Below are positions 5,751-48,895 of a stretch of DNA of 64,000 nucleotides, piece after piece. Below the pieces are notes generated by a model. It ran no database searches and had not been told where the DNA came from. It worked only from the letters and a program-made list of their open reading frames with translations. The stretch comes from an uncultured Oscillospiraceae bacterium (GTDB taxonomy: Bacteria; Bacillota; Clostridia; Oscillospirales; Acutalibacteraceae). The stretch spans positions 13,559-77,558 of the forward strand of contig UQAZ01000002.1 of assembly GCA_900539165.1 (NCBI GenBank). Direction: 5' to 3'. Numbering within the stretch: the first letter of the stretch is position 1; every line of letters starts with the position of its first letter. A program made the translations under genes and the position numbers.

Positions 5751-8700
5751 TATTCACATCCTCCTTTAAGGCTTTAATTGCATCTTCAAAATCCATATCG
5801 TTAAACGAATTTGGTATAATTTCTTTCTTGTTTTTACAAACATCCTTATAATCGCAAAATTCACAGGTCTTATTGTGCTTTTCGGAATTTGCAGGCGACT
5901 GCGGAATGTTTCCGTTATGAAGATTATCGCCCATAGAAACAATGAGTTCGTCTATTTTTGCAGAAATTCTTCCAAGGTCGGCAAGAGAAACAATATTACC
6001 GCCAAGGCCTTTATTTGTTAATGAAACCGGAATATATTTATTACTCCACTCTCTGTCCATATGCTCGGCAATGCTATGCTCTTCGTCATTTAAGACAACG
6101 CCCTTCATACAAAATTCTTTATTTTCCTTAGAAGATAAATCCTTAGCATTTCTTTCAACGTTGAAAACGCTTCTTGCAGAATGCATATAAAGCACGCCTG
6201 CCTCAACACCCGAAAGCTTATTATCCGACGCACAGAGTGTAAACAGATAAATGAACATCTGCAAATTTAAGCCGTGCAAAATATCGCTGAGCTTGAATTC
6301 TTTGCTTCCGCTTTTATAATCGACAACCCTTACATACTGAACGCCGTTTTCTACATAGGTATCAACACGGTCTATTGAGCCTTTGATTTTTATGGTACCT
6401 CCGTCCGAAAGCTTATAGGTCTTTGACATAACCTCTTCATTTTCACTTCCGTCGCCGATAGATAGTTCAAATGCTTTCGCTTCAAAGTCGCTGTTAAGAA
6501 ATTCATCACGCAATCTGATAACAACCTCTGTAAGCATTTTAGACAGTCTCATAAACTGATACTTAAATCTTGCGCTTTGCTTTTCGCTGTCGCCCATTTT
6601 GGTATCAAAATAGATTTTCAAATATTTTTCTGTAAGACTTGCAATTTCATTTTTATCAAGCTGAACAAGTCTTTTTGTAGACACATCCTTAATCAGATGT
6701 TCGAGTACGAAATGGATAACCGTACCGGTTTGCATTGCGTTCATTTCTGCCTTTGTTCTCGGTCTGACATTAAGTCCGAATTTGCAAAAATACCTAAAAG
6801 CACAATTATAATAATCCTCAATTCTTGATGCTGACAGGTACATATCCTTCTTAAACAGTTTTTCTGCAAGTTCCTTGTTTTTAATTTGCATTTGGGGATT
6901 TTCGCAAAGAGCGTTTACTGCATTAAGTCTGTATTCGTAATCCTTTTTTTCTGAAAAATACTGCTTTAGAGTAGCAATTATTTCGCTGTCAGCGTCATAA
7001 TCCGACGCAAGATATTCAAAGGCATTTGCATCACTTTCAAGGCAGTCTAAAGTAATATCGTTTGGTGCGTGTTCAACGGTTAATTCATTTAACGCATCCT
7101 TTATTTCACTTACAAGGGAGCTTTCACATGTATCGTCAACAGAATTTCTGTAAGAAACGAACAGCATATCAGTGGCACACGAAGCAGCCATATATGCAAA
7201 AAATCGTTCCTGAGCATTCAGCGTTTCTCCGTAAGAATAAAGCTTAAAATCATCGTCGATAAGCCTTACTCTGTCTGCCTCGCTGAGAAGTCCCGAGGAG
7301 GAAACATTTTGAGGAAATTCGCCCTCGTTCGCCCCGAGGACAAAGCACGCATACGGATTATTACAGCGTATTCTGTCGGCAGAGCCGAACTGAACATTAT
7401 CAAGTCCTATCGGAACATTACCCAAGTCCTCGTTTGCAATCATAAGATTGAAAAGCTTTGCGTATTCCTTAATACTTATTTTCTCTCCGTCAGAGAGCGT
7501 GGCAAGCTGATTAAGAATATCCATCAGCAAATCCCAAACTCTGCCCTGTTCCAATGCAAGAGCTGATTTTCCGTTTTCATCAAGTGCAACTGCCAACTGC
7601 TTTATATTCTTATCTACCGAAAAATCAAGCAGCGTATAATAAATAGCAGTCGAAATGCCCTTAGCATCTGTACTCTTTACTCTATGCGAAAAATTTTCAA
7701 GTCGAGAGGAAACATACTCCCTGTATGTATTGATTTTTTCAAGTGCCTTTTTATCGGAATCGGTGATTTCCTCTACAAAACCCTTAGTGGATTCAGTAAA
7801 CGGTGACTTCCATTTATTACCGTTAATATTCCACATAAAAGCGTAATTTTCAAGGCTTGAAATACTTTCTGTATCAAGCTGAGTAAGTCCTGTTTTAAGA
7901 AGCGAGAAAACATCGTCGGAGCGAAAATAATACTCACACACTCTAAACAGATAATTAATAAACATAACACAAGGCTGTGAGGATATATTTTGTCTTTCGT
8001 CGTCAAAATACGGAATATTATATTTTGAAAACGCAAACTGAAGCTCTCTGCGATACTTTTCTGCATCACGGCAGATAACGGTAATATCGCAAGGGTTTAT
8101 GCCTCTTCTGAGAAGCTTTGATATTGAAGATGAAACATAATCGCATTCATCAACAATATTTTTTGCACAATAAACAGACACATTGGATACCGCACCCGAA
8201 TACGGAGCTTTGGTATCGGCATAAATATTTTTTTCAAGGCAACGAAGCTCGTCATTATTTGCCCTGTGATTTTCCGTCAAATAAACAGGCGGCAATATTT
8301 CAACACCCTGCTTTTTTGCAACAGAGGTCAAAATATCAATATTAGAATTAACATATGAAAAGAGGCTGTACTTATCCCTGTTTTCGATGAGTTGTGAGCA
8401 AAATGTTATATAAACAGCGTCAGCCTGCTTTAATATAATTTCAAGAATTTTATATTCCTGTGCAACAAAGCCTGAAAAACCGTCGATATAAACGGTTTTG
8501 CCCTTAAAATAATCAAGAGTCAGCAAGCGTTCATAAAGATATGTGAGTTCCTCGGCAGGGTCTGTATATTTATCCTTAATCAGTTCGTCATATGCGGACA
8601 TTATAAGTGCTATATCGTGAAGCTTTTGCGACAAGGTAAGCTTTTCAGCATTTTGCGAAGCCGAAATAATGTCGTCACAGGAGACACGACAAGCCTTCAT

Positions 8701-42210: not shown

Positions 42211-42927
42211 TTATTTTTTATCTTTCGACAAGGACGCTTTTTCCTTAACCTTGTCAGCATTTTCTTTTATATGCTCATAAGTTTCTTTGAGTTCTTTTTT
42301 CTCAACAACACATTGGCACAAAAGACCGCAAAAGCCCATTACTATTGCAAAAATCATAGACAAATTATGATTAAACTCAAAGTGCGATTCTATCATATCC
42401 CAAAACATCATTGAACCCGAAAATGCAGTTGTTACGATTACCGCAAGGTACTTATATTTAGCTGCAAGTAACGCCGCAATAACAGCAACGATAATTCCAA
42501 AAAGAACGGCTATTCCCTTTCCCAGTCCCAAAAGATAACCCGAAACGGCAATATATACCATCAACAGAGTAGTTATAAAAAGTTTTGTTTTATGCAACTT
42601 ATGCGAATAAACTGCACACAAAACTCCTATTACCGCAGACAATAAAACAAGAACCCAAAAGAAAGCACCTGTCGGTTTAAGAATTACAAAGGAAGCAAAA
42701 AGAGGCACGAAAAAGCCTATACCGAAAAAGAAAAATATATTCCACACCTTATGCATAAAATGCCCTGCAAAAGAAGTAGTAACAGTCAAAAGTCCGAAAA
42801 GCCAAGGTAAAATATTTTCACAAGCAGTTTTTAACTGTTGAAAATCAGCAGGCACATATGACACAAGCTTTTCAAAAAATTCGTAAAATTCCATAAATAC
42901 TCGCAGTTGAAAAATCAACCTCTGCAT
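42211..42927 (-). CDS. Hypothetical polytopic membrane protein
   Basis: About six hydrophobic helices and a lysine-rich C-terminus. No recognisable motif. Confidence 0.45.
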   Translation of the reverse strand: MQRLIFQLRVFMEFYEFFEKLVSYVPADFQQLKTACENILPWLFGLLTVTTSFAGHFMHKVWNIFFFFGIGFFVPLFASFVILKPTGAFFWVLVLLSAVIGVLCAVYSHKLHKTKLFITTLLMVYIAVSGYLLGLGKGIAVLFGIIVAVIAALLAAKYKYLAVIVTTAFSGSMMFWDMIESHFEFNHNLSMIFAIVMGFCGLLCQCVVEKKELKETYEHIKENADKVKEKASLSKDKK

Positions 42928-42994: not shown

Positions 42995-44173
42995 TTACAT
43001 ATACTTTTTAATTTCGTCAACCTTATTTGTTCTTTCCCAAGAAACATCAAGGTCCTCTCTGCCCATATGACCGTAAGCGGCAACATTCTTATAAATCGGC
43101 TTTCTCAAGTCGAGAGCCTTAATAATTGCATAAGGGCGAAGGTCAAATACCTTATTAACGATTTCGCTGATTTCGTCATCAGACTTCTTACCTGTGCCGA
43201 AAGTGTCAACCATAATTGATACAGGCTTTGCAACGCCGATAGCGTAAGCAAGTTCAACCTCGCACTTATCGGCGAGACCTGCTGCAACGATATTCTTAGC
43301 AACCCATCTTGCGGCATATGCTGCGGAACGGTCAACCTTTGTAGGGTCCTTACCCGAGAAAGCACCGCCGCCGTGACGAGCGTATCCGCCATATGTATCA
43401 ACGATAATCTTTCTGCCGGTAAGACCCGAATCACCCATAGGTCCGCCGATAACAAAACGGCCTGTCGGATTAACATAAAATACGGTATCCTTGTCCATAA
43501 GCTCTGCGGGAACTGTTGTCTTAATTACCTTTTCGATAATATCTTTTCTGAGTTGCTCGAGTTCAACATCTGCGCTGTGCTGTGATGAAACTACAACAGC
43601 TGTAACCTTAACCGGCTTGCCGTCATCGTATTCAACAGTAACCTGAGTTTTACCGTCTGAGTAGAGATAAGGAAGAGTTCCGTTTTCTCTAACCTCTGTA
43701 AGCTTCAACGCAAGCTTATGAGCAAGAGAAATAGGAAGAGGCATAAGCTCCTCGGTCTCATTGCAAGCATAACCGAACATCATACCCTGGTCGCCTGCAC
43801 CGTTAAGGTTGTCCTCGTCGTCCTCATTATTTTTAAGTTCATATGACTTATCAACGCCCATAGCAATATCGGGAGACTGATGGTCAAGAGCAGTCAAAAC
43901 GGCACAGGTATTGCCGTCAAAGCCTTTCTTTGCATCATCATAACCGATGTCAATTATAGTCTTACGAACTATTGATGTAATATCAACATCCGCCTTAGTT
44001 GTGATTTCGCCCATTACGAGAACCTGACCCGTTGTGCAGGTGGTTTCGCAAGCGACACGGCTCATTGGGTCCTGCTCGAGCATTGCGTCGAGAATTGCGT
44101 CAGAAATCTGGTCGCAAATTTTATCGGGATGTCCCTTAGTTACAGATTCACTTGTAAACAAAAACTTTGACAT
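42995..44173 (-). CDS. metK: S-adenosylmethionine synthetase
   Basis: The N-terminal [24 protein letters not shown] is the MetK signature, with GGGAFSGKD present. 392 aa. Confidence 0.95.
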
Positions 44174-44200: not shown

Positions 44201-44336
44201 AAAAAAATAAGCATACGATACTGTACCGTATGCTGAAACTCATCATTCGGTAATACCGACGGTATTAGCACCTTACTGTCAAAGCAGGTTGCTGTGATTT
44301 CAACGGGCCGTTCCCTCAATCACTCTTGATAACGCA
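44201..44336 (-). promoter_or_regulatory. SAM-I (S-box) riboswitch with an intrinsic terminator, in the metK leader
   Basis: Minus-strand RNA reads gUUAUCAAGAGuGauuGAGGGAacGGCCCguuGAAaucaCAGCAACC...AAGGUGCUAAuaCC...ugaugag, which matches the SAM-I core (AUCAAGAG.GG.GGAGGGA.UGGCCC.AUGAA...GCAACC...GGUGCUAA). The expression-platform hairpin AGCAUACG-loop-CGUAUGCU plus U8 ends 28 nt before the metK ATG. Confidence 0.8.
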
Positions 44337-44493
44337 TGTTCATTTTCTGTGTAATAATCATACTACAAATACATTACAAAGTCAACCGTAAAATTATTAA
44401 AATAAGTATTGTATTTTGTTTAGAAATAGTTTATAATTAAATACGAAATATTTTGCTCGCATGTCGAGCGTTGCTGTTTAAGGAGGAAATAAA

Positions 44494-46056
44494 ATGGCAA
44501 AGAAAACAGTATTCCTTACCGGCGGTACCGGTAACATGGGTTGGGCTGCTGTACAGGAAATGCTCAAGCATCCAAATGAAATCAACATTAAGATGCTCGC
44601 AAGAAAAAGCCCTAAGAACGAAGAAAAGCTCAAGGACCTTATGGCTAAGCCAAATGTTCAAATCGTATGGGGTGACCTCGGCGACTATGATTCAATTCTT
44701 GAGGGTGTAACAGGCTCTGACTATGTTCTTCATATCGGCGGTATGGTATCTCCGACAGCTGACTGGAAGCCATACAGAACTCAAAAGACAAACATCGGCG
44801 CTGCTCAGAACATCTGTAAGGCAGTTTTGGCTCAGCCAAATGCTGATGACATTAAGGTTGCATACATCGGTACTGTTGCTGAAACAGGCGGCAGAAACTA
44901 TCCTATCCACTGGGGCAGATGCGGTGACCCGATTAAAATTTCTATCTATGACCACTATGCAATTTCTAAGGCAGTTGCAGAGCGTGTATTCGTTGAAAGC
45001 GGTATCAAGAACTGGGTTGTAATGCGTCAGTCAGGTATCCTTTATCCAAACATTCTCAAGAATATGGATCCAATTATGTTCCACGTACCGATTAACGGTG
45101 TTCTTGAGTGGTGTACTGTTGAGGATTCAGGTCGTCTTATGTGCAACCTTGTTCTCGAGGACGAAAAAGGCACACTCGATAACGGCTTTTGGAATCACTT
45201 CTTCAACATCGGTTCAGGTGAGCAGTACAGAATTTCTAACTATGAATTTGAGTGTCTCCTTCTCGGTACTCTCGGTCTTGCAGGCCCTGAAAAGCTCTTC
45301 GAGCCTAACTGGTTTATCACAAAGAACTTCCACGGTCAGTTCTATGCTGACGGTGACAAGCTTGAAGAATTCCTCCACTTCAGAGAGAACCTCCCTGTTC
45401 AGGATTACTTCAACAGACTTGCTGATCATGTTGAATTCTACTTCAAAATACCAAGATACCTTCCAAAGAATCTTGTTGCTGCTTGCGCTAAGCCATTCAT
45501 GAAGAAGATTGCTATGACTAAAGACTTCGGTACTCTTGACTGGGTTGCAACAAAGAATCAAACAAGACTCTCTGCTTACTACGGTACATATGAGGATTGG
45601 ACTAAGATTCCTTCAAAGTGGGAAGACTTTGAAATCAGAAAGTTCAACAAGAAGACTGAGGACGCTGAAAACTACAAGCTTGACCACGGTTATGATGAGA
45701 CAAAGCCTGAATCAGAGCTTGACATCGAGGATATGAAGCAGGCTGCTAAGTTCCGTGGCGGTGAGTGCCTCAGCGAAACAATGACTAAGGGCGATATGGC
45801 TACAAAGCTCAAGTGGAAGTGCGGTTACTGCGGTGCTGAATTTGAGGCTTCACCTGCTCTTATTCTTCTCGGCGGTCACTGGTGTCCTGAATGCTACATT
45901 CCGCAGAAGCAGTGGGATTACGACAACATCGCAAGAACAAATCCGTTCTTCGCACAGGTTTGGTATCCAAGCCACACCAAGGAAGAGACAAACGTTTACA
46001 AGTTTGACGATTTGTTCCAGATTGACGGCGTTAAGTGGGACGACATCAAGAGATAA
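44494..46056 (+). CDS. NAD(P)-binding SDR/epimerase-fold protein with a C-terminal ~250-aa extension ending in a Cys4 zinc-ribbon; function unknown
   Basis: Rossmann motif VFLTGGTGNMG and catalytic YAISK (YxxxK). A long C-terminal region then carries KWKCGYCG...HWCPECY. AGGAGG RBS. Codon usage is strongly biased towards optimal codons (gct, ggt, cgt, aag, ctc), unlike most neighbours. Confidence 0.6.
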   Translation: MAKKTVFLTGGTGNMGWAAVQEMLKHPNEINIKMLARKSPKNEEKLKDLMAKPNVQIVWGDLGDYDSILEGVTGSDYVLHIGGMVSPTADWKPYRTQKTNIGAAQNICKAVLAQPNADDIKVAYIGTVAETGGRNYPIHWGRCGDPIKISIYDHYAISKAVAERVFVESGIKNWVVMRQSGILYPNILKNMDPIMFHVPINGVLEWCTVEDSGRLMCNLVLEDEKGTLDNGFWNHFFNIGSGEQYRISNYEFECLLLGTLGLAGPEKLFEPNWFITKNFHGQFYADGDKLEEFLHFRENLPVQDYFNRLADHVEFYFKIPRYLPKNLVAACAKPFMKKIAMTKDFGTLDWVATKNQTRLSAYYGTYEDWTKIPSKWEDFEIRKFNKKTEDAENYKLDHGYDETKPESELDIEDMKQAAKFRGGECLSETMTKGDMATKLKWKCGYCGAEFEASPALILLGGHWCPECYIPQKQWDYDNIARTNPFFAQVWYPSHTKEETNVYKFDDLFQIDGVKWDDIKR

Positions 46057-46067
46057 TTCAATAATGC

Positions 46068-46101
46068 AAAAAACCGTAAGCGTTAAGCTTACGGTTTTTT
46101 T
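46068..46101. terminator. Bidirectional intrinsic terminator between the SDR-like gene (+) and rmuC (-)
   Basis: Perfect 11-bp stem AAACCGTAAGC / GCTTACGGTTT with a loop GTTAA. It is followed by T7 on the + strand and preceded by A6, which gives a U-run on the minus strand. Confidence 0.6.
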
Positions 46102-46137
46102 AGTAAAAAATCAAAGTTATCTAAAACAAATTAAAAT

Positions 46138-47331: not shown

Positions 47332-47859
47332 TTATTTAATGACTTTTGAAATTTTACTTTTTAGTTTACTGTTATAAATCAAAACGAGCAAATCAAAGGT
47401 ATAATCGTACAAAATGAATATTACATTAAGCGCAACAAAGAACAGCGTTATGCCGATTTTGCCGAACATGTTATCAAACGGTATACCGAAAACATAAATC
47501 AAAATAAGCTGAATGCCTGCCATAGCGATATTAAAAATCACAAGCTTTATCAGCAATCTTATCGGCTTTGGCTTAATTTTTGAAAGCTTTATTCTGAGTA
47601 TCGGATAATAGCCAAAAAACATAATATAAAACAGCACCGATTCCTTACCGCCCAAAAGAATAAATGCTAAAAACGAAGTGGAAAAATAAGTAAGCACAGC
47701 AGACTTAACCGACACGGATTCCAAAAGCAAAATCATCAGCAAACCCGTGGCAATAGGCAAAACATACGACAGCGAAACGCTGACAGCACCCAAGAACAGC
47801 AAAACAACGCTGAGTGCGGATATAACTCCGGCAAAGGCGGAGGCTTTAGCATTTTTCAT
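47332..47859 (-). CDS. Hypothetical small polytopic membrane protein (5-6 TM; possibly an ECF-S-component-like substrate-binding membrane protein)
   Basis: 175 aa, almost entirely hydrophobic helices. No motif I can assign. Confidence 0.4.
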   Translation of the reverse strand: MKNAKASAFAGVISALSVVLLFLGAVSVSLSYVLPIATGLLMILLLESVSVKSAVLTYFSTSFLAFILLGGKESVLFYIMFFGYYPILRIKLSKIKPKPIRLLIKLVIFNIAMAGIQLILIYVFGIPFDNMFGKIGITLFFVALNVIFILYDYTFDLLVLIYNSKLKSKISKVIK

Positions 47860-48031: not shown

Positions 48032-48895
48032 ATGAAAAAGGCTATTGCAGTATTTCTGGCAGTTGTAGTTGTTATATCTGCTGCTATGATTGGATGCTCT
48101 AAAAAGTCAGATGATGACGCAGACGCTTCTCAAACTGTCGGTTTAGGTGGTAACGAGGATGTTTATGACCTTGACGGTGATGACGAAAGCGGTGACGAAG
48201 AGACAGAGGTTGTCACCGACGAAAACGGAGAAACCGTAACAAATGAAGACGGAAAACCCGTTACCAGAAAAGTAACAAAGCACGCCAAAAAACCAAGCGG
48301 AACAACCACAACAATGAAACGCAAGGGTAATGAAGGAACAACGGCAAGTGAAGTCACCACTAAGGATGTTAAGGACGACAAAGTACCTACAACAAGTGCC
48401 AAGGGCGACCCTGTTGAATTCAGCGCCGAGGACCAAAACATATTAAAGCAAATGCTTGAAGTACCTTATCTTTACAATGCAAACTACGAGAATGCAGACG
48501 GTGTACCTACCGACATAGCTTCTCATGTTGCTATTTGGATGTCACAAAGAGACGGACTTAACACAACAGCGTTTGCAAGCGGTACAATCGTGCTTGACTT
48601 ATTCAAGTATTTCGGTCAAACCGTTGTAAACTTCAAAACGAACTGCAACGACTCAAAGGGTAACGCTGACATTACATACAACACCGCAAGCGACACCTTT
48701 ACCATTCCCGACGGAGAGGCTGAGAGACAAAAGGTTTCTCTTACATCAATCGAAGCACTCGGAAACAACAATTACTACAAGGTAACGGCAAAAGTTGAGG
48801 CTGCCGGAAGCATTTCAAAAGTAGTTGCGGTAGTTCAAAGAAACAAGCTTGATCCTTCGCTCGGCTTTAGTATCAAAGCACTTAAATGGTCATAA
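48032..48895 (+). CDS. Lipoprotein with an acidic D/E/T-rich linker and a C-terminal globular domain
   Basis: Signal peptide with lipobox MKKAIAVFLAVVVVISAAMIGCS. A low-complexity acidic stretch (DDDADAS...GDDESGDEETEVVTDENGETVTNEDG...) is followed by an ordered ~150-aa domain. AAGAGG RBS before the ATG at 48032. Confidence 0.6.
   Translation: MKKAIAVFLAVVVVISAAMIGCSKKSDDDADASQTVGLGGNEDVYDLDGDDESGDEETEVVTDENGETVTNEDGKPVTRKVTKHAKKPSGTTTTMKRKGNEGTTASEVTTKDVKDDKVPTTSAKGDPVEFSAEDQNILKQMLEVPYLYNANYENADGVPTDIASHVAIWMSQRDGLNTTAFASGTIVLDLFKYFGQTVVNFKTNCNDSKGNADITYNTASDTFTIPDGEAERQKVSLTSIEALGNNNYYKVTAKVEAAGSISKVVAVVQRNKLDPSLGFSIKALKWS

Follow-up and report, generated by a model that had tools for sequence, protein, structure and literature searches.

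A probable ortholog of the coprostanol-pathway enzyme SpiR, with a treble-clef-type metal module, in an uncultured relative of Eubacterium coprostanoligenes

Results

The gene and its product

We analysed a 64,000-nucleotide stretch of DNA (the window; part of contig UQAZ01000002.1) from an uncultured Oscillospiraceae bacterium and focused on one gene on its plus strand, which codes for a 520-amino-acid (aa) protein with an N-terminal extended short-chain dehydrogenase/reductase (SDR) domain and a C-terminal Cys4 element. An earlier reading made from the letters alone (the sequence-only reading) had delimited this open reading frame (ORF) exactly as the ORF list and the raw sequence give it. 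The gene, its signals and the segments of its product are laid out as follows.

44409..44437, plus strand: promoter, with -35 TTGTAT at 44409-44414, a 17-nt spacer and a perfect -10 TATAAT at 44432-44437 (from sequence and conservation)
44454..44470, plus strand: stem-loop TGCTCG-CATGT-CGAGCG in the 5' untranslated region (5'-UTR), between the -10 hexamer and the ribosome-binding site (RBS; hairpin scan)
44480..44486, plus strand: RBS AAGGAGG, 7 nt 5' of the ATG (from sequence; kept in all aligned orthologous loci)
44494..46056, plus strand: coding sequence of the probable spiR ortholog, 520 aa plus stop, ATG start (ORF list and raw sequence)
44494..45393, plus strand: extended-SDR catalytic domain (about aa 1-300), with Rossmann fold, T127/Y155/K159 and a small substrate-binding subdomain
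45394..45699, plus strand: all-helical insertion, about aa 301-402, placed after the SDR core and before the metal module, with helices 302-394 in the AlphaFold2 (AF2) model
45700..45912, plus strand: DUF4379/CapR-type treble-clef module (about aa 403-473; Pfam, HMMER, Foldseek)
45820-45822, 45829-45831, 45883-45885 and 45892-45894, plus strand: codons of the ligands C443, C446, C464 and C467, respectively
45913..46053, plus strand: C-terminal tail (aa 474-520), with W474 and an NPFFAQVW motif, which packs with the metal module
about 46065..46105, plus strand: intrinsic terminator, a AAAAACCGTAAGC-GTTAA-GCTTACGGTTTTT stem-loop and a T run behind it (RNA fold)

Orthology to SpiR

An exact-sequence look-up identified the protein as WP_177917812.1, deposited under the source name 'uncultured Eubacterium sp.'. 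Its best match in a one-genome-per-species scan was Eubacterium coprostanoligenes ATCC 51222 (95% identity), and the same kind of look-up showed the ortholog encoded there (L001:8001-9560) to be WP_242941742.1, the accession published for SpiR of this strain (Arp et al., Nat Commun 2026;17:3495; PMC13079761). By BLASTP the two proteins are identical at 492 of 520 positions (95%), gap-free over 520/520 residues, with a score of 1012 bits, and the window protein thus passes the threshold of 500 bits to SpiR (DIAMOND) by which SpiR homologs were defined in that study. The 28 substitutions leave all catalytic and ligand positions unchanged, with Y155/K159 and C443/C446/C464/C467 at the same places in both proteins. 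SpiR itself has been described as an enzyme of 520 aa with an extra C-terminal domain that carries C443/C446/C464/C467 (PMC13079761).

The two loci resemble each other beyond the protein, its length, its catalytic residues and its four Cys, in that both have a divergent metK, the same promoter and the same RBS. They differ downstream, where the SpiR host has a 198-aa ORF and the window has rmuC, and the window host is a different, uncultured species. The nearest genomes are those of E. coprostanoligenes ATCC 51222, of uncultured 'Eubacterium sp.' and of metagenome-assembled genomes (MAGs) from Acutalibacteraceae. Homologs of the window protein run into the thousands and are named only 'NAD(P)-dependent oxidoreductase' or 'NAD-dependent epimerase/dehydratase'.

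We conclude, with a probability of roughly 0.88, that the gene is the spiR ortholog of an uncultured relative of E. coprostanoligenes (Acutalibacteraceae) and that its product follows the sterol mechanism proposed below; its steroid function would be carried over from SpiR by orthology. The unusual architecture of SDR plus Cys4 is real and already described, having been notable enough for publication as a novelty in 2026, and because the locus is the ortholog of a characterized enzyme, the finding as such is a known one. The sequence-only reading had known of no characterized enzyme with such an architecture and had called the function unknown, a view that became outdated when the paper on SpiR, 95% identical to the window protein, overtook it in 2026.

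The SDR domain and the overall fold

The dinucleotide-binding motif TGGTGNMG lies at aa 9-16, DHYAISK supplies Y155 and K159 (YAISK, 155-159) and FEPNWF is found at aa 268-273. The intact extended-SDR fold that had been proposed from GGTGNMG and YAISK could be read from the translation and was supported by Pfam matches over aa 3-181 as well as by AF2 and Foldseek. These matches were to Epimerase, 3Beta_HSD, NAD_binding_10 and NmrA, with the scores of Epimerase and NAD_binding_10 above the Pfam cutoffs. The family of 3β-hydroxysteroid dehydrogenases (3β-HSD)/isomerases, PF01073, scored 35.0 bits against a cutoff of 22 bits over aa 8-169, which corresponds to profile positions 2-160 of 280 only.

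To this we added a family alignment of 80 diverse homologs, recovered by an exhaustive HMMER search that returned full-length relatives of the window protein down to 27-29% identity. PF01073 also matched 79 of these 80 members. G10, G13, Y155 and K159 are invariant or nearly so, position 127 is S or T in 80/80 homologs, and R134, HWGR-GDP (D145/P146), D153, E163, R178 and E205 are further conserved motifs of the family. The published description names T126 as the catalytic Thr (PMC13079761); in SpiR as in the window protein, position 126 holds Gly and the Thr follows at 127 (nt 44869-44874).

Built from the family alignment, the AF2 model of the full protein is one compact structure (predicted local distance difference test, pLDDT, 96; predicted template-modelling score, pTM, 0.94). 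NCBIfam matched only the N-terminal part, far below threshold, and neither Pfam nor NCBIfam matched aa 260-520 except for DUF4379, which leaves the helical insertion without a Pfam family. An assignment of the whole length to one family therefore comes from the literature, as SpiR; the domain databases return generic SDR matches only. A CSP41-type RNA-binding SDR and an NmrA-like regulator had also been considered and were dropped once the orthology to SpiR was clear.

Expression signals

The codon bias of the gene is the strongest we found: its effective number of codons, 37.0, is lower than that of any other among the window's 51 ORFs with 120 aa or more (most others, about 42-54), and it ranks first of 31 genes in the use of AAG, GCT, GGT, CTC+CTT, TTC, AAC and ATC. 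The sequence-only reading was right about this strong codon optimization and also about the gene having its own RBS, promoter and terminator. The promoter belongs to a block, TTGTAA/TTGCAA...TAGTTTATAAT, that is nearly invariant across 7 orthologous loci with diverging flanks (the window and, around positions 7900-8000, L001, L002, L004, L008, L013 and L015). The terminator hairpin has a folding energy of -19.4 kcal/mol (z = -6.27), and 0/200 shuffled sequences fold as well. A consensus scan reported no promoter on the plus strand, where the -35 hexamer has 3/6 matches, and missed the terminator; both were established by these other means.

The 5'-UTR sequences of the orthologous loci differ, but a palindrome or hairpin, recognized by eye only, stands at the same place in each, and in the window the stem-loop is possibly a stabilizer of the mRNA 5' end. 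The gene is monocistronic and stands among unrelated housekeeping genes. Because it combines the strongest codon bias with a conserved promoter, a consensus RBS, a hairpin in the 5'-UTR and a strong terminator, we expect its expression to be high and probably constitutive.

Steroid chemistry and the proposed mechanism

In assays with E. coli cells and lysates, SpiR converted cholesterol to cholestenone and pregnenolone to progesterone by oxidation and isomerization, and it reduced 3-keto steroids stereospecifically to 3β-alcohols (PMC13079761). The same study found by isothermal titration calorimetry (ITC) that SpiR binds cholesterol as well as NADH and NAD+ (dissociation constant about 1 μM) and does not bind NADPH, reported a homodimer by dynamic light scattering and concluded that SpiR both starts and finishes the conversion of cholesterol to coprostanol.

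Carried over to the window protein, the N-terminal SDR domain would bind NAD(H), and T127/Y155/K159 would oxidize the 3β-hydroxyl group of a Δ5-sterol by NAD+-dependent abstraction of a hydride from C3, the substrates being cholesterol, pregnenolone and probably phytosterols. Isomerization from Δ5 to Δ4 would accompany the oxidation and yield the 4-en-3-one (cholestenone). A separate Fe-S flavoenzyme would then reduce the double bond (5β-reduction), and the same SDR site would use NADH to reduce the 3-ketone of coprostanone to the 3β-alcohol, coprostanol. If NADH from the first step is used in the last, the reduction of the double bond would be the net electron sink. The two SDR half-reactions and the cofactor binding have been demonstrated on SpiR and would hold for the window protein by orthology.

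The steroid function gains independent support from two relatives, P0126 and P0186, in which Pfam finds Oxidored_FMN and Pyr_redox_2 fused to the SDR family of SpiR. This is the architecture of BaiCD/IsmB-type Fe-S flavoenzymes, which are steroid 5β-reductases, and it matches published fusions of a 5β-reductase with a 3β-hydroxysteroid dehydrogenase/Δ5-4 isomerase that convert pregnenolone to epipregnanolone (Arp et al., Nat Commun 2025; PMC12238238). Homologs at 27-44% identity, such fusions included, were recovered at full length.

Three groups of characterized enzymes invite comparison. The first, dw0523 from Dysosmobacter welbionis with the fusion proteins mf2052 and fp1951 (PMC12238238), belongs to the same family and shares both the order of SDR, helical and metal-module segments and the 3β-OH/Δ5 chemistry; SpiR and dw0523 are 39.5% identical (PMC13079761). 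Members of this dw0523-like tier (27-44% identity) mostly have a C-x3-H...CPxC (Cys3His) site, whereas the window protein has Cys4; their genes are often fused or adjacent to a 5β-reductase gene, whereas the window gene stands alone among housekeeping genes; and their characterized substrates are C21 steroids and not cholesterol. The second group, the eukaryotic 3β-HSD/Δ5-4 isomerases (PF01073) and the bacterial AcmA and Rv1106c, catalyses the same reaction as SpiR, which was placed sister to the eukaryotic-type 3β-HSD group in a published tree (PMC13079761). PF01073 enzymes are, however, less than 25% identical and have neither the helical insertion nor the treble-clef module.

The third is IsmA (ECOP170, WP_078769004.1; Kenny et al. 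2020, PMC7435688). Like SpiR, it has been proposed to carry out both the first step and the last one on the way to coprostanol, and within one and the same Acutalibacteraceae clade its gene is often present together with spiR (PMC13079761). Unlike SpiR, it is a classical short SDR (S138/Y151/K155) that lacks the C-terminal metal module, and the two are 10.7% identical. IsmA is strictly NADP+-dependent and cholesterol-induced (PMC7435688).

Several points weigh against the assignment as we have drawn it. A basic stretch after strand β2 usually marks NADP(H)-preferring SDRs, and the window protein has R37-K38-S39 at this place (nt 44602-44610), which would normally predict NADP(H) and conflicts with the NAD(H)-only ITC result for SpiR. 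All biochemistry comes from E. coprostanoligenes SpiR, from which the window protein differs at 28 residues, and the high expression is read from codon bias and signals only. The authors of the SpiR study were unable to measure kcat/Km (PMC13079761), and cholesterol oxidation in the lysate of E. coprostanoligenes was strictly NADP+-dependent, which fits IsmA (Kenny et al. 2020, PMC7435688). A preprint on IsmB, moreover, assigns the pathway to IsmA and IsmB with no part for SpiR, favours 5-cholestenone over 4-cholestenone as the on-pathway intermediate and describes the isomerase as still sought. Because of the NADP+-only lysate activity, the missing kcat/Km and the intermediate favoured in the preprint, the relative weight of SpiR and IsmA in vivo is unsettled.

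These points bear on a different division of labour, in which the enzyme is a true 3β-HSD/isomerase whose main job is not the conversion of cholesterol to coprostanol. It would instead be a constitutive, broad-range sterol/steroid oxidoreductase acting on phytosterols, pregnenolone-type hormones and other 3β-hydroxy compounds, and IsmA would be the dedicated, cholesterol-induced enzyme. Apart from the cofactor of the lysate activity, the 29-fold induction of ismA by cholesterol (PMC7435688) speaks for this, as does the conversion of pregnenolone and also of 5β-dihydroprogesterone by SpiR, for which turnover numbers have not been published (PMC13079761). The extreme codon bias and the conserved strong promoter, which suggest constitutive expression, fit as well, and so do orthologs at 85-91% identity in MAGs from rabbit, goat, sheep, roe-deer rumen and chicken, since the diets of these hosts are rich in plant sterols. 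By ITC, however, SpiR binds cholesterol tighter than it binds related steroids and tighter than IsmA does; the presence of spiR predicts the detection of coprostanone in stool with an area under the curve of 0.95, better than ismA; and a human isolate with spiR and without ismA still produces coprostanol (PMC13079761). We therefore regard the broad-range role as unlikely and retain the coprostanol pathway as the main function.

The C-terminal metal module

The sequence-only reading had described a treble-clef/zinc-ribbon-like Cys4 element in the C-terminal part. This holds, with C443/C446 in KWKCGYCGAEFEA and C464/C467 in GGHWCPECY forming a CxxC...CPxC site, a sub-cutoff match to DUF4379 and Foldseek matches to zinc fingers. 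The published interpretation is a different one: from AlphaFold geometry and Cys conservation, a rubredoxin-like Fe(Cys)4 site was proposed, which would be the first metal centre in an SDR (PMC13079761). Profile searches and structure prediction lead us instead to group the Cys4 module, by homology, with the treble-clef zinc fingers of DUF4379/CapR and not with rubredoxin.

Several lines of evidence lead to this view. DUF4379 was matched by 47 of the 80 family members at E<=0.01; the Pfam rubredoxin family, by contrast, matched neither the window protein (E<=1) nor any of the 80 homologs (E<=0.01). The module shares with DUF4379 (PF14311) and CapR (PF21817) the pattern W-x-C-x(2-3)-[CH]...G-x-W-C-P-x-C. 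In HMMER searches, aa 403-473 matched other proteins in which 6-16 copies stand in tandem; the two of these that were checked had DUF4379 scores of 165 and 198 bits and matched CapR as well. These arrays show that the metal module of SpiR is a mobile, repeatable domain. The largest that we noted, P0157 (1629 aa), consists of 16 stretches matched by the module, and arrays were also seen in P0168, P0180 and others. Elsewhere DUF4379/CapR domains occur in tandem or on HNH, VSR and restriction-type nucleases of phages and giant viruses, in contrast to the window protein, where a single copy sits on a metabolic enzyme. The literature on DUF4379 held nothing relevant to a SpiR-type enzyme.

The predicted structure agrees with the profile matches. 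Modelled alone, aa 400-520 reached a pLDDT of 92, and in this model as well as in that of the full protein the C-terminal tail is predicted with high confidence; its residues W474, A480, F485, A487 and Q488 are near-invariant in the 80 homologs. In the model, strands 439-442 and 449-452 flank the first CxxC, and a short helix (465-468) would carry C464/C467. A treble clef consists of a zinc knuckle and a β-hairpin, with the final pair of ligands where a helix starts, and the predicted place of the second CxxC has this signature. The two Cys knuckles of the window protein are 17 residues apart, compared with about 29 in rubredoxin. In Foldseek searches the C-terminal model matched proteins of giant viruses and phages annotated 'treble clef zinc finger' or 'zinc-ribbon' (E 3e-5 to 4e-4), with an rmsd of 0.8-1.9 Å over 60-72 residues at 30-38% identity; in many of these the domain is joined to an HNH, VSR or restriction nuclease. 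Against the PDB the isolated C-terminal model gave nothing significant (best E 0.5, kinetoplastid mitoribosomal proteins, 44 residues), and rubredoxin was absent from the 50 PDB and 50 BFVD matches listed.

We then asked how the ligands vary in the family. All four Cys are kept in 43 of the 46 members with at least 51% identity. A first knuckle of the C-x3-H type, with the second ligand His or shifted, occurs in 4 members at 66-72% identity, and a His as second ligand is also found in a homolog from a MAG labelled Rikenellaceae (58% identity, 605 bits) and in the 5β-reductase fusion P0126. In the distant tier described above Cys3His prevails, and 10 of the 80 members, a distant clade, have lost all four ligands and retain the S/T-Y-K triad. 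Conservation of the C-terminal Cys thus applies to the close SpiR clade and breaks down across the wider family, by His substitutions and by the loss of the ligands.

Two findings count against our reading of the module. The match to DUF4379 ('probable treble clef zinc finger'), over aa 429-467, scored 22.2 bits and the C-terminal half alone 22.9 bits, both below the cutoff of 24.5 bits. In addition, Cys4 is strictly kept in the close SpiR clade, in which the authors of PMC13079761 read functional constraint. Given the homology of the module, the lack of rubredoxin matches, the variation of the ligands and the fact that an SDR has no flavin, we consider it probable from sequence and model that the site is a structural zinc treble clef. 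The change of the second Cys to His in close homologs and the loss of all ligands in the distant clade, in particular, favour structural zinc. Its role would be to stabilize the lid or the dimer or to dock a partner such as the 5β-reductase.

It seems improbable to us that the site is a redox centre of the rubredoxin type, Fe(Cys)4, with a part in catalysis or in the transfer of electrons, for instance to the 5β-reductase. The CxxC...CPxC pattern does resemble rubredoxin knuckles, and the four Cys, conserved among close homologs, have a tetrahedral arrangement in the published AF2 geometry (S-S distances 3.5-3.9 Å); a tetrahedral Cys4 geometry, however, cannot tell Zn from Fe, and the proposal (PMC13079761) reports no metal or spectroscopic data. 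Also in favour of such a centre, IsmB requires a low-potential electron donor that is as yet unidentified, fusions of the SDR to the 5β-reductase, an Fe-S flavoenzyme, are frequent, and flavodoxin and 4Fe-4S domains are attached to some distant members of the family. Yet rubredoxin potentials would be far too high for a reductase that requires dithionite, and NAD(H) is an obligate two-electron carrier, so that a protein without flavin would have no means to split the pair into single electrons. Beyond the absence of rubredoxin from the Pfam results for the 80 members and from the structural matches listed, the His at the second ligand occurs in a homolog above the 500-bit threshold of the SpiR study itself and in a 5β-reductase fusion, and the ligands are wholly gone in members that retain their S/T-Y-K triad.

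The fusions to one-electron carriers are found in two distant members (36-38% identity) that have kept a Cys3His module. P0156 (831 aa) has a C-terminal flavodoxin_5 domain and a 4Fe-4S dicluster domain, and P0151 (806 aa) has 4Fe-4S matches only. They are the sole hint of relatives wired to such carriers.

Nucleotide-sugar annotation

Public annotation calls the protein an 'NAD-dependent epimerase/dehydratase family protein' or a 'nucleoside-diphosphate-sugar epimerase', and the matches behind such names are easily found. Epimerase is the top Pfam match, PseB, FnlA and CapD are the best sequence matches in NCBIfam and the PDB, and RmlB and GDP-sugar 4,6-dehydratases are the best structural neighbours. 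No structure of the SpiR family was found in the PDB, where nucleotide-sugar 4,6-dehydratases come nearest. Searched with the full model, the PDB returned RmlB- and GMD-type dehydratases at E of about 1e-15 over some 320-380 columns, and for RmlB, GMD, FnlA and PseB, which likewise have an extended-SDR fold, E ranged from 1e-15 to 1e-12 with target-normalized TM-scores of 0.62-0.76. These enzymes, however, have 300-360 aa, lack the C-terminal extension and act on nucleotide sugars, and they cover only the SDR part of the model, at 11-21% identity and a query-normalized TM-score of about 0.47.

A function as nucleotide-sugar epimerase or 4,6-dehydratase can be dismissed as next to impossible, and we rejected the annotation: the sequence similarity is limited to the Rossmann half (aa 4-114, the only part matched in the PDB sequence search), the best NCBIfam equivalog, PseB, scored 48.4 bits against a cutoff of 407.75 over aa 2-114 only, the 95%-identical ortholog SpiR acts on steroids, and the neighbours are the housekeeping genes metK, proC and rmuC and not polysaccharide genes.

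Distribution

Homologs of spiR have been reported exclusively from Acutalibacteraceae (PMC13079761), and the 598 genome matches of our one-genome-per-species scan are mostly in line with this range. Gut MAGs of rabbit, goat, sheep, deer and chicken account for many of these matches and hint at plant sterols as substrates. Some matches, at 57-59% identity, are in MAGs with labels outside the Acutalibacteraceae. One of them, labelled Rikenellaceae, carries the homolog with a C-x3-H first knuckle mentioned above (L079:7995-9488), whose 605 bits to SpiR exceed the 500-bit cutoff; the contig has a uniform GC content of about 51%, and the neighbouring genes are folP, trmN, fabD, a plsC-like gene and one for a gyrB/parE-type topoisomerase B subunit. 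Myxococcota (L065, L077) and Ca. Enterocola (L075) are other such labels, taken here as given.

Full-length SpiR-like proteins at 58-62% identity are also encoded by the gut parabasalid protists Tritrichomonas foetus (P0101, TRFO_10534; P0102, TRFO_37671) and T. musculus (P0109, P0114), with 59% identity and 674 bits to SpiR in the case of P0109. S-Y-K and Cys4 are intact in these proteins, which have an extra hydrophobic N-terminal extension of 60-90 aa, and the T. musculus copies sit on contigs of 3.6 and 11.4 Mb. From the sequences, this looks like gene transfer from a bacterium to a protist. A literature search found nothing relevant linking Tritrichomonas to coprostanol or sterol conversion.

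A wider reading would join these observations to those on the metal module, namely that a redox-inert DUF4379/CapR finger, otherwise a domain of tandem arrays and of homing or restriction nucleases, was co-opted by the gut-bacterial 3β-HSD/isomerase family for docking or dimerization and that genes at the level of spiR were transferred horizontally to Tritrichomonas and apparently to Bacteroidota. In its docking variant, the surface of the finger would pass the labile 5-en-3-one to the Fe-S flavoenzyme 5β-reductase. We offer this combination as a long shot.

Neighbouring genes

On the side of metK, and further downstream, we recorded the following features.

42211-42927, minus strand: ORF of 238 aa, polytopic membrane-like, no Pfam or NCBIfam match
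42995-44173, minus strand: metK, neighbour of spiR
44210-44234, minus strand: terminator-like hairpin between the SAM aptamer and the metK start
44237-44335, minus strand: S-adenosylmethionine (SAM; S-box) riboswitch, canonical and full length, 77 bits, upstream of metK and divergent from spiR
47332-47859, minus strand: ORF of 175 aa, polytopic membrane-like, no Pfam or NCBIfam match
48032-48895, plus strand: ORF of 287 aa, no Pfam or NCBIfam match, with AMIGCS as a lipoprotein-like signal and a low-complexity stretch rich in acidic residues and Thr

The divergent metK riboswitch had been recognized by the sequence-only reading; its arrangement with metK is ordinary and lies outside the spiR unit. 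With proC upstream and rmuC downstream, the order proC...metK(-)/spiR(+) is shared with E. coprostanoligenes, which has a 393-aa ORF between proC and metK where the window has the one of 238 aa. Judged by ORF N-termini and sizes, with no profile search made, no gene resembling ismA or ismB (a Fe-S flavoenzyme of about 650 aa) was evident in the window.

Discussion

Beyond recognizing a known enzyme in another organism, our re-analysis adds a reinterpretation of the metal site as a zinc finger, a reach of the family beyond the Acutalibacteraceae and signals of constitutive high expression. The published claim of rubredoxin-like iron rests on AlphaFold geometry; the homology of the module and the variation of its ligands speak for a structural zinc finger. 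The spread into gut protists and into a MAG labelled Rikenellaceae is relevant to any use of spiR as a biomarker for a single taxon. Should the joint reading of co-option and transfer be true, sterol conversion in the gut would not be limited to one clade of Acutalibacteraceae.

For the organism of the window, the identity of the locus as spiR implies that it probably reduces cholesterol. Extreme codon bias together with a conserved promoter would place the enzyme with the most highly expressed proteins of these bacteria, which would fit a role of sterols as a major electron sink.

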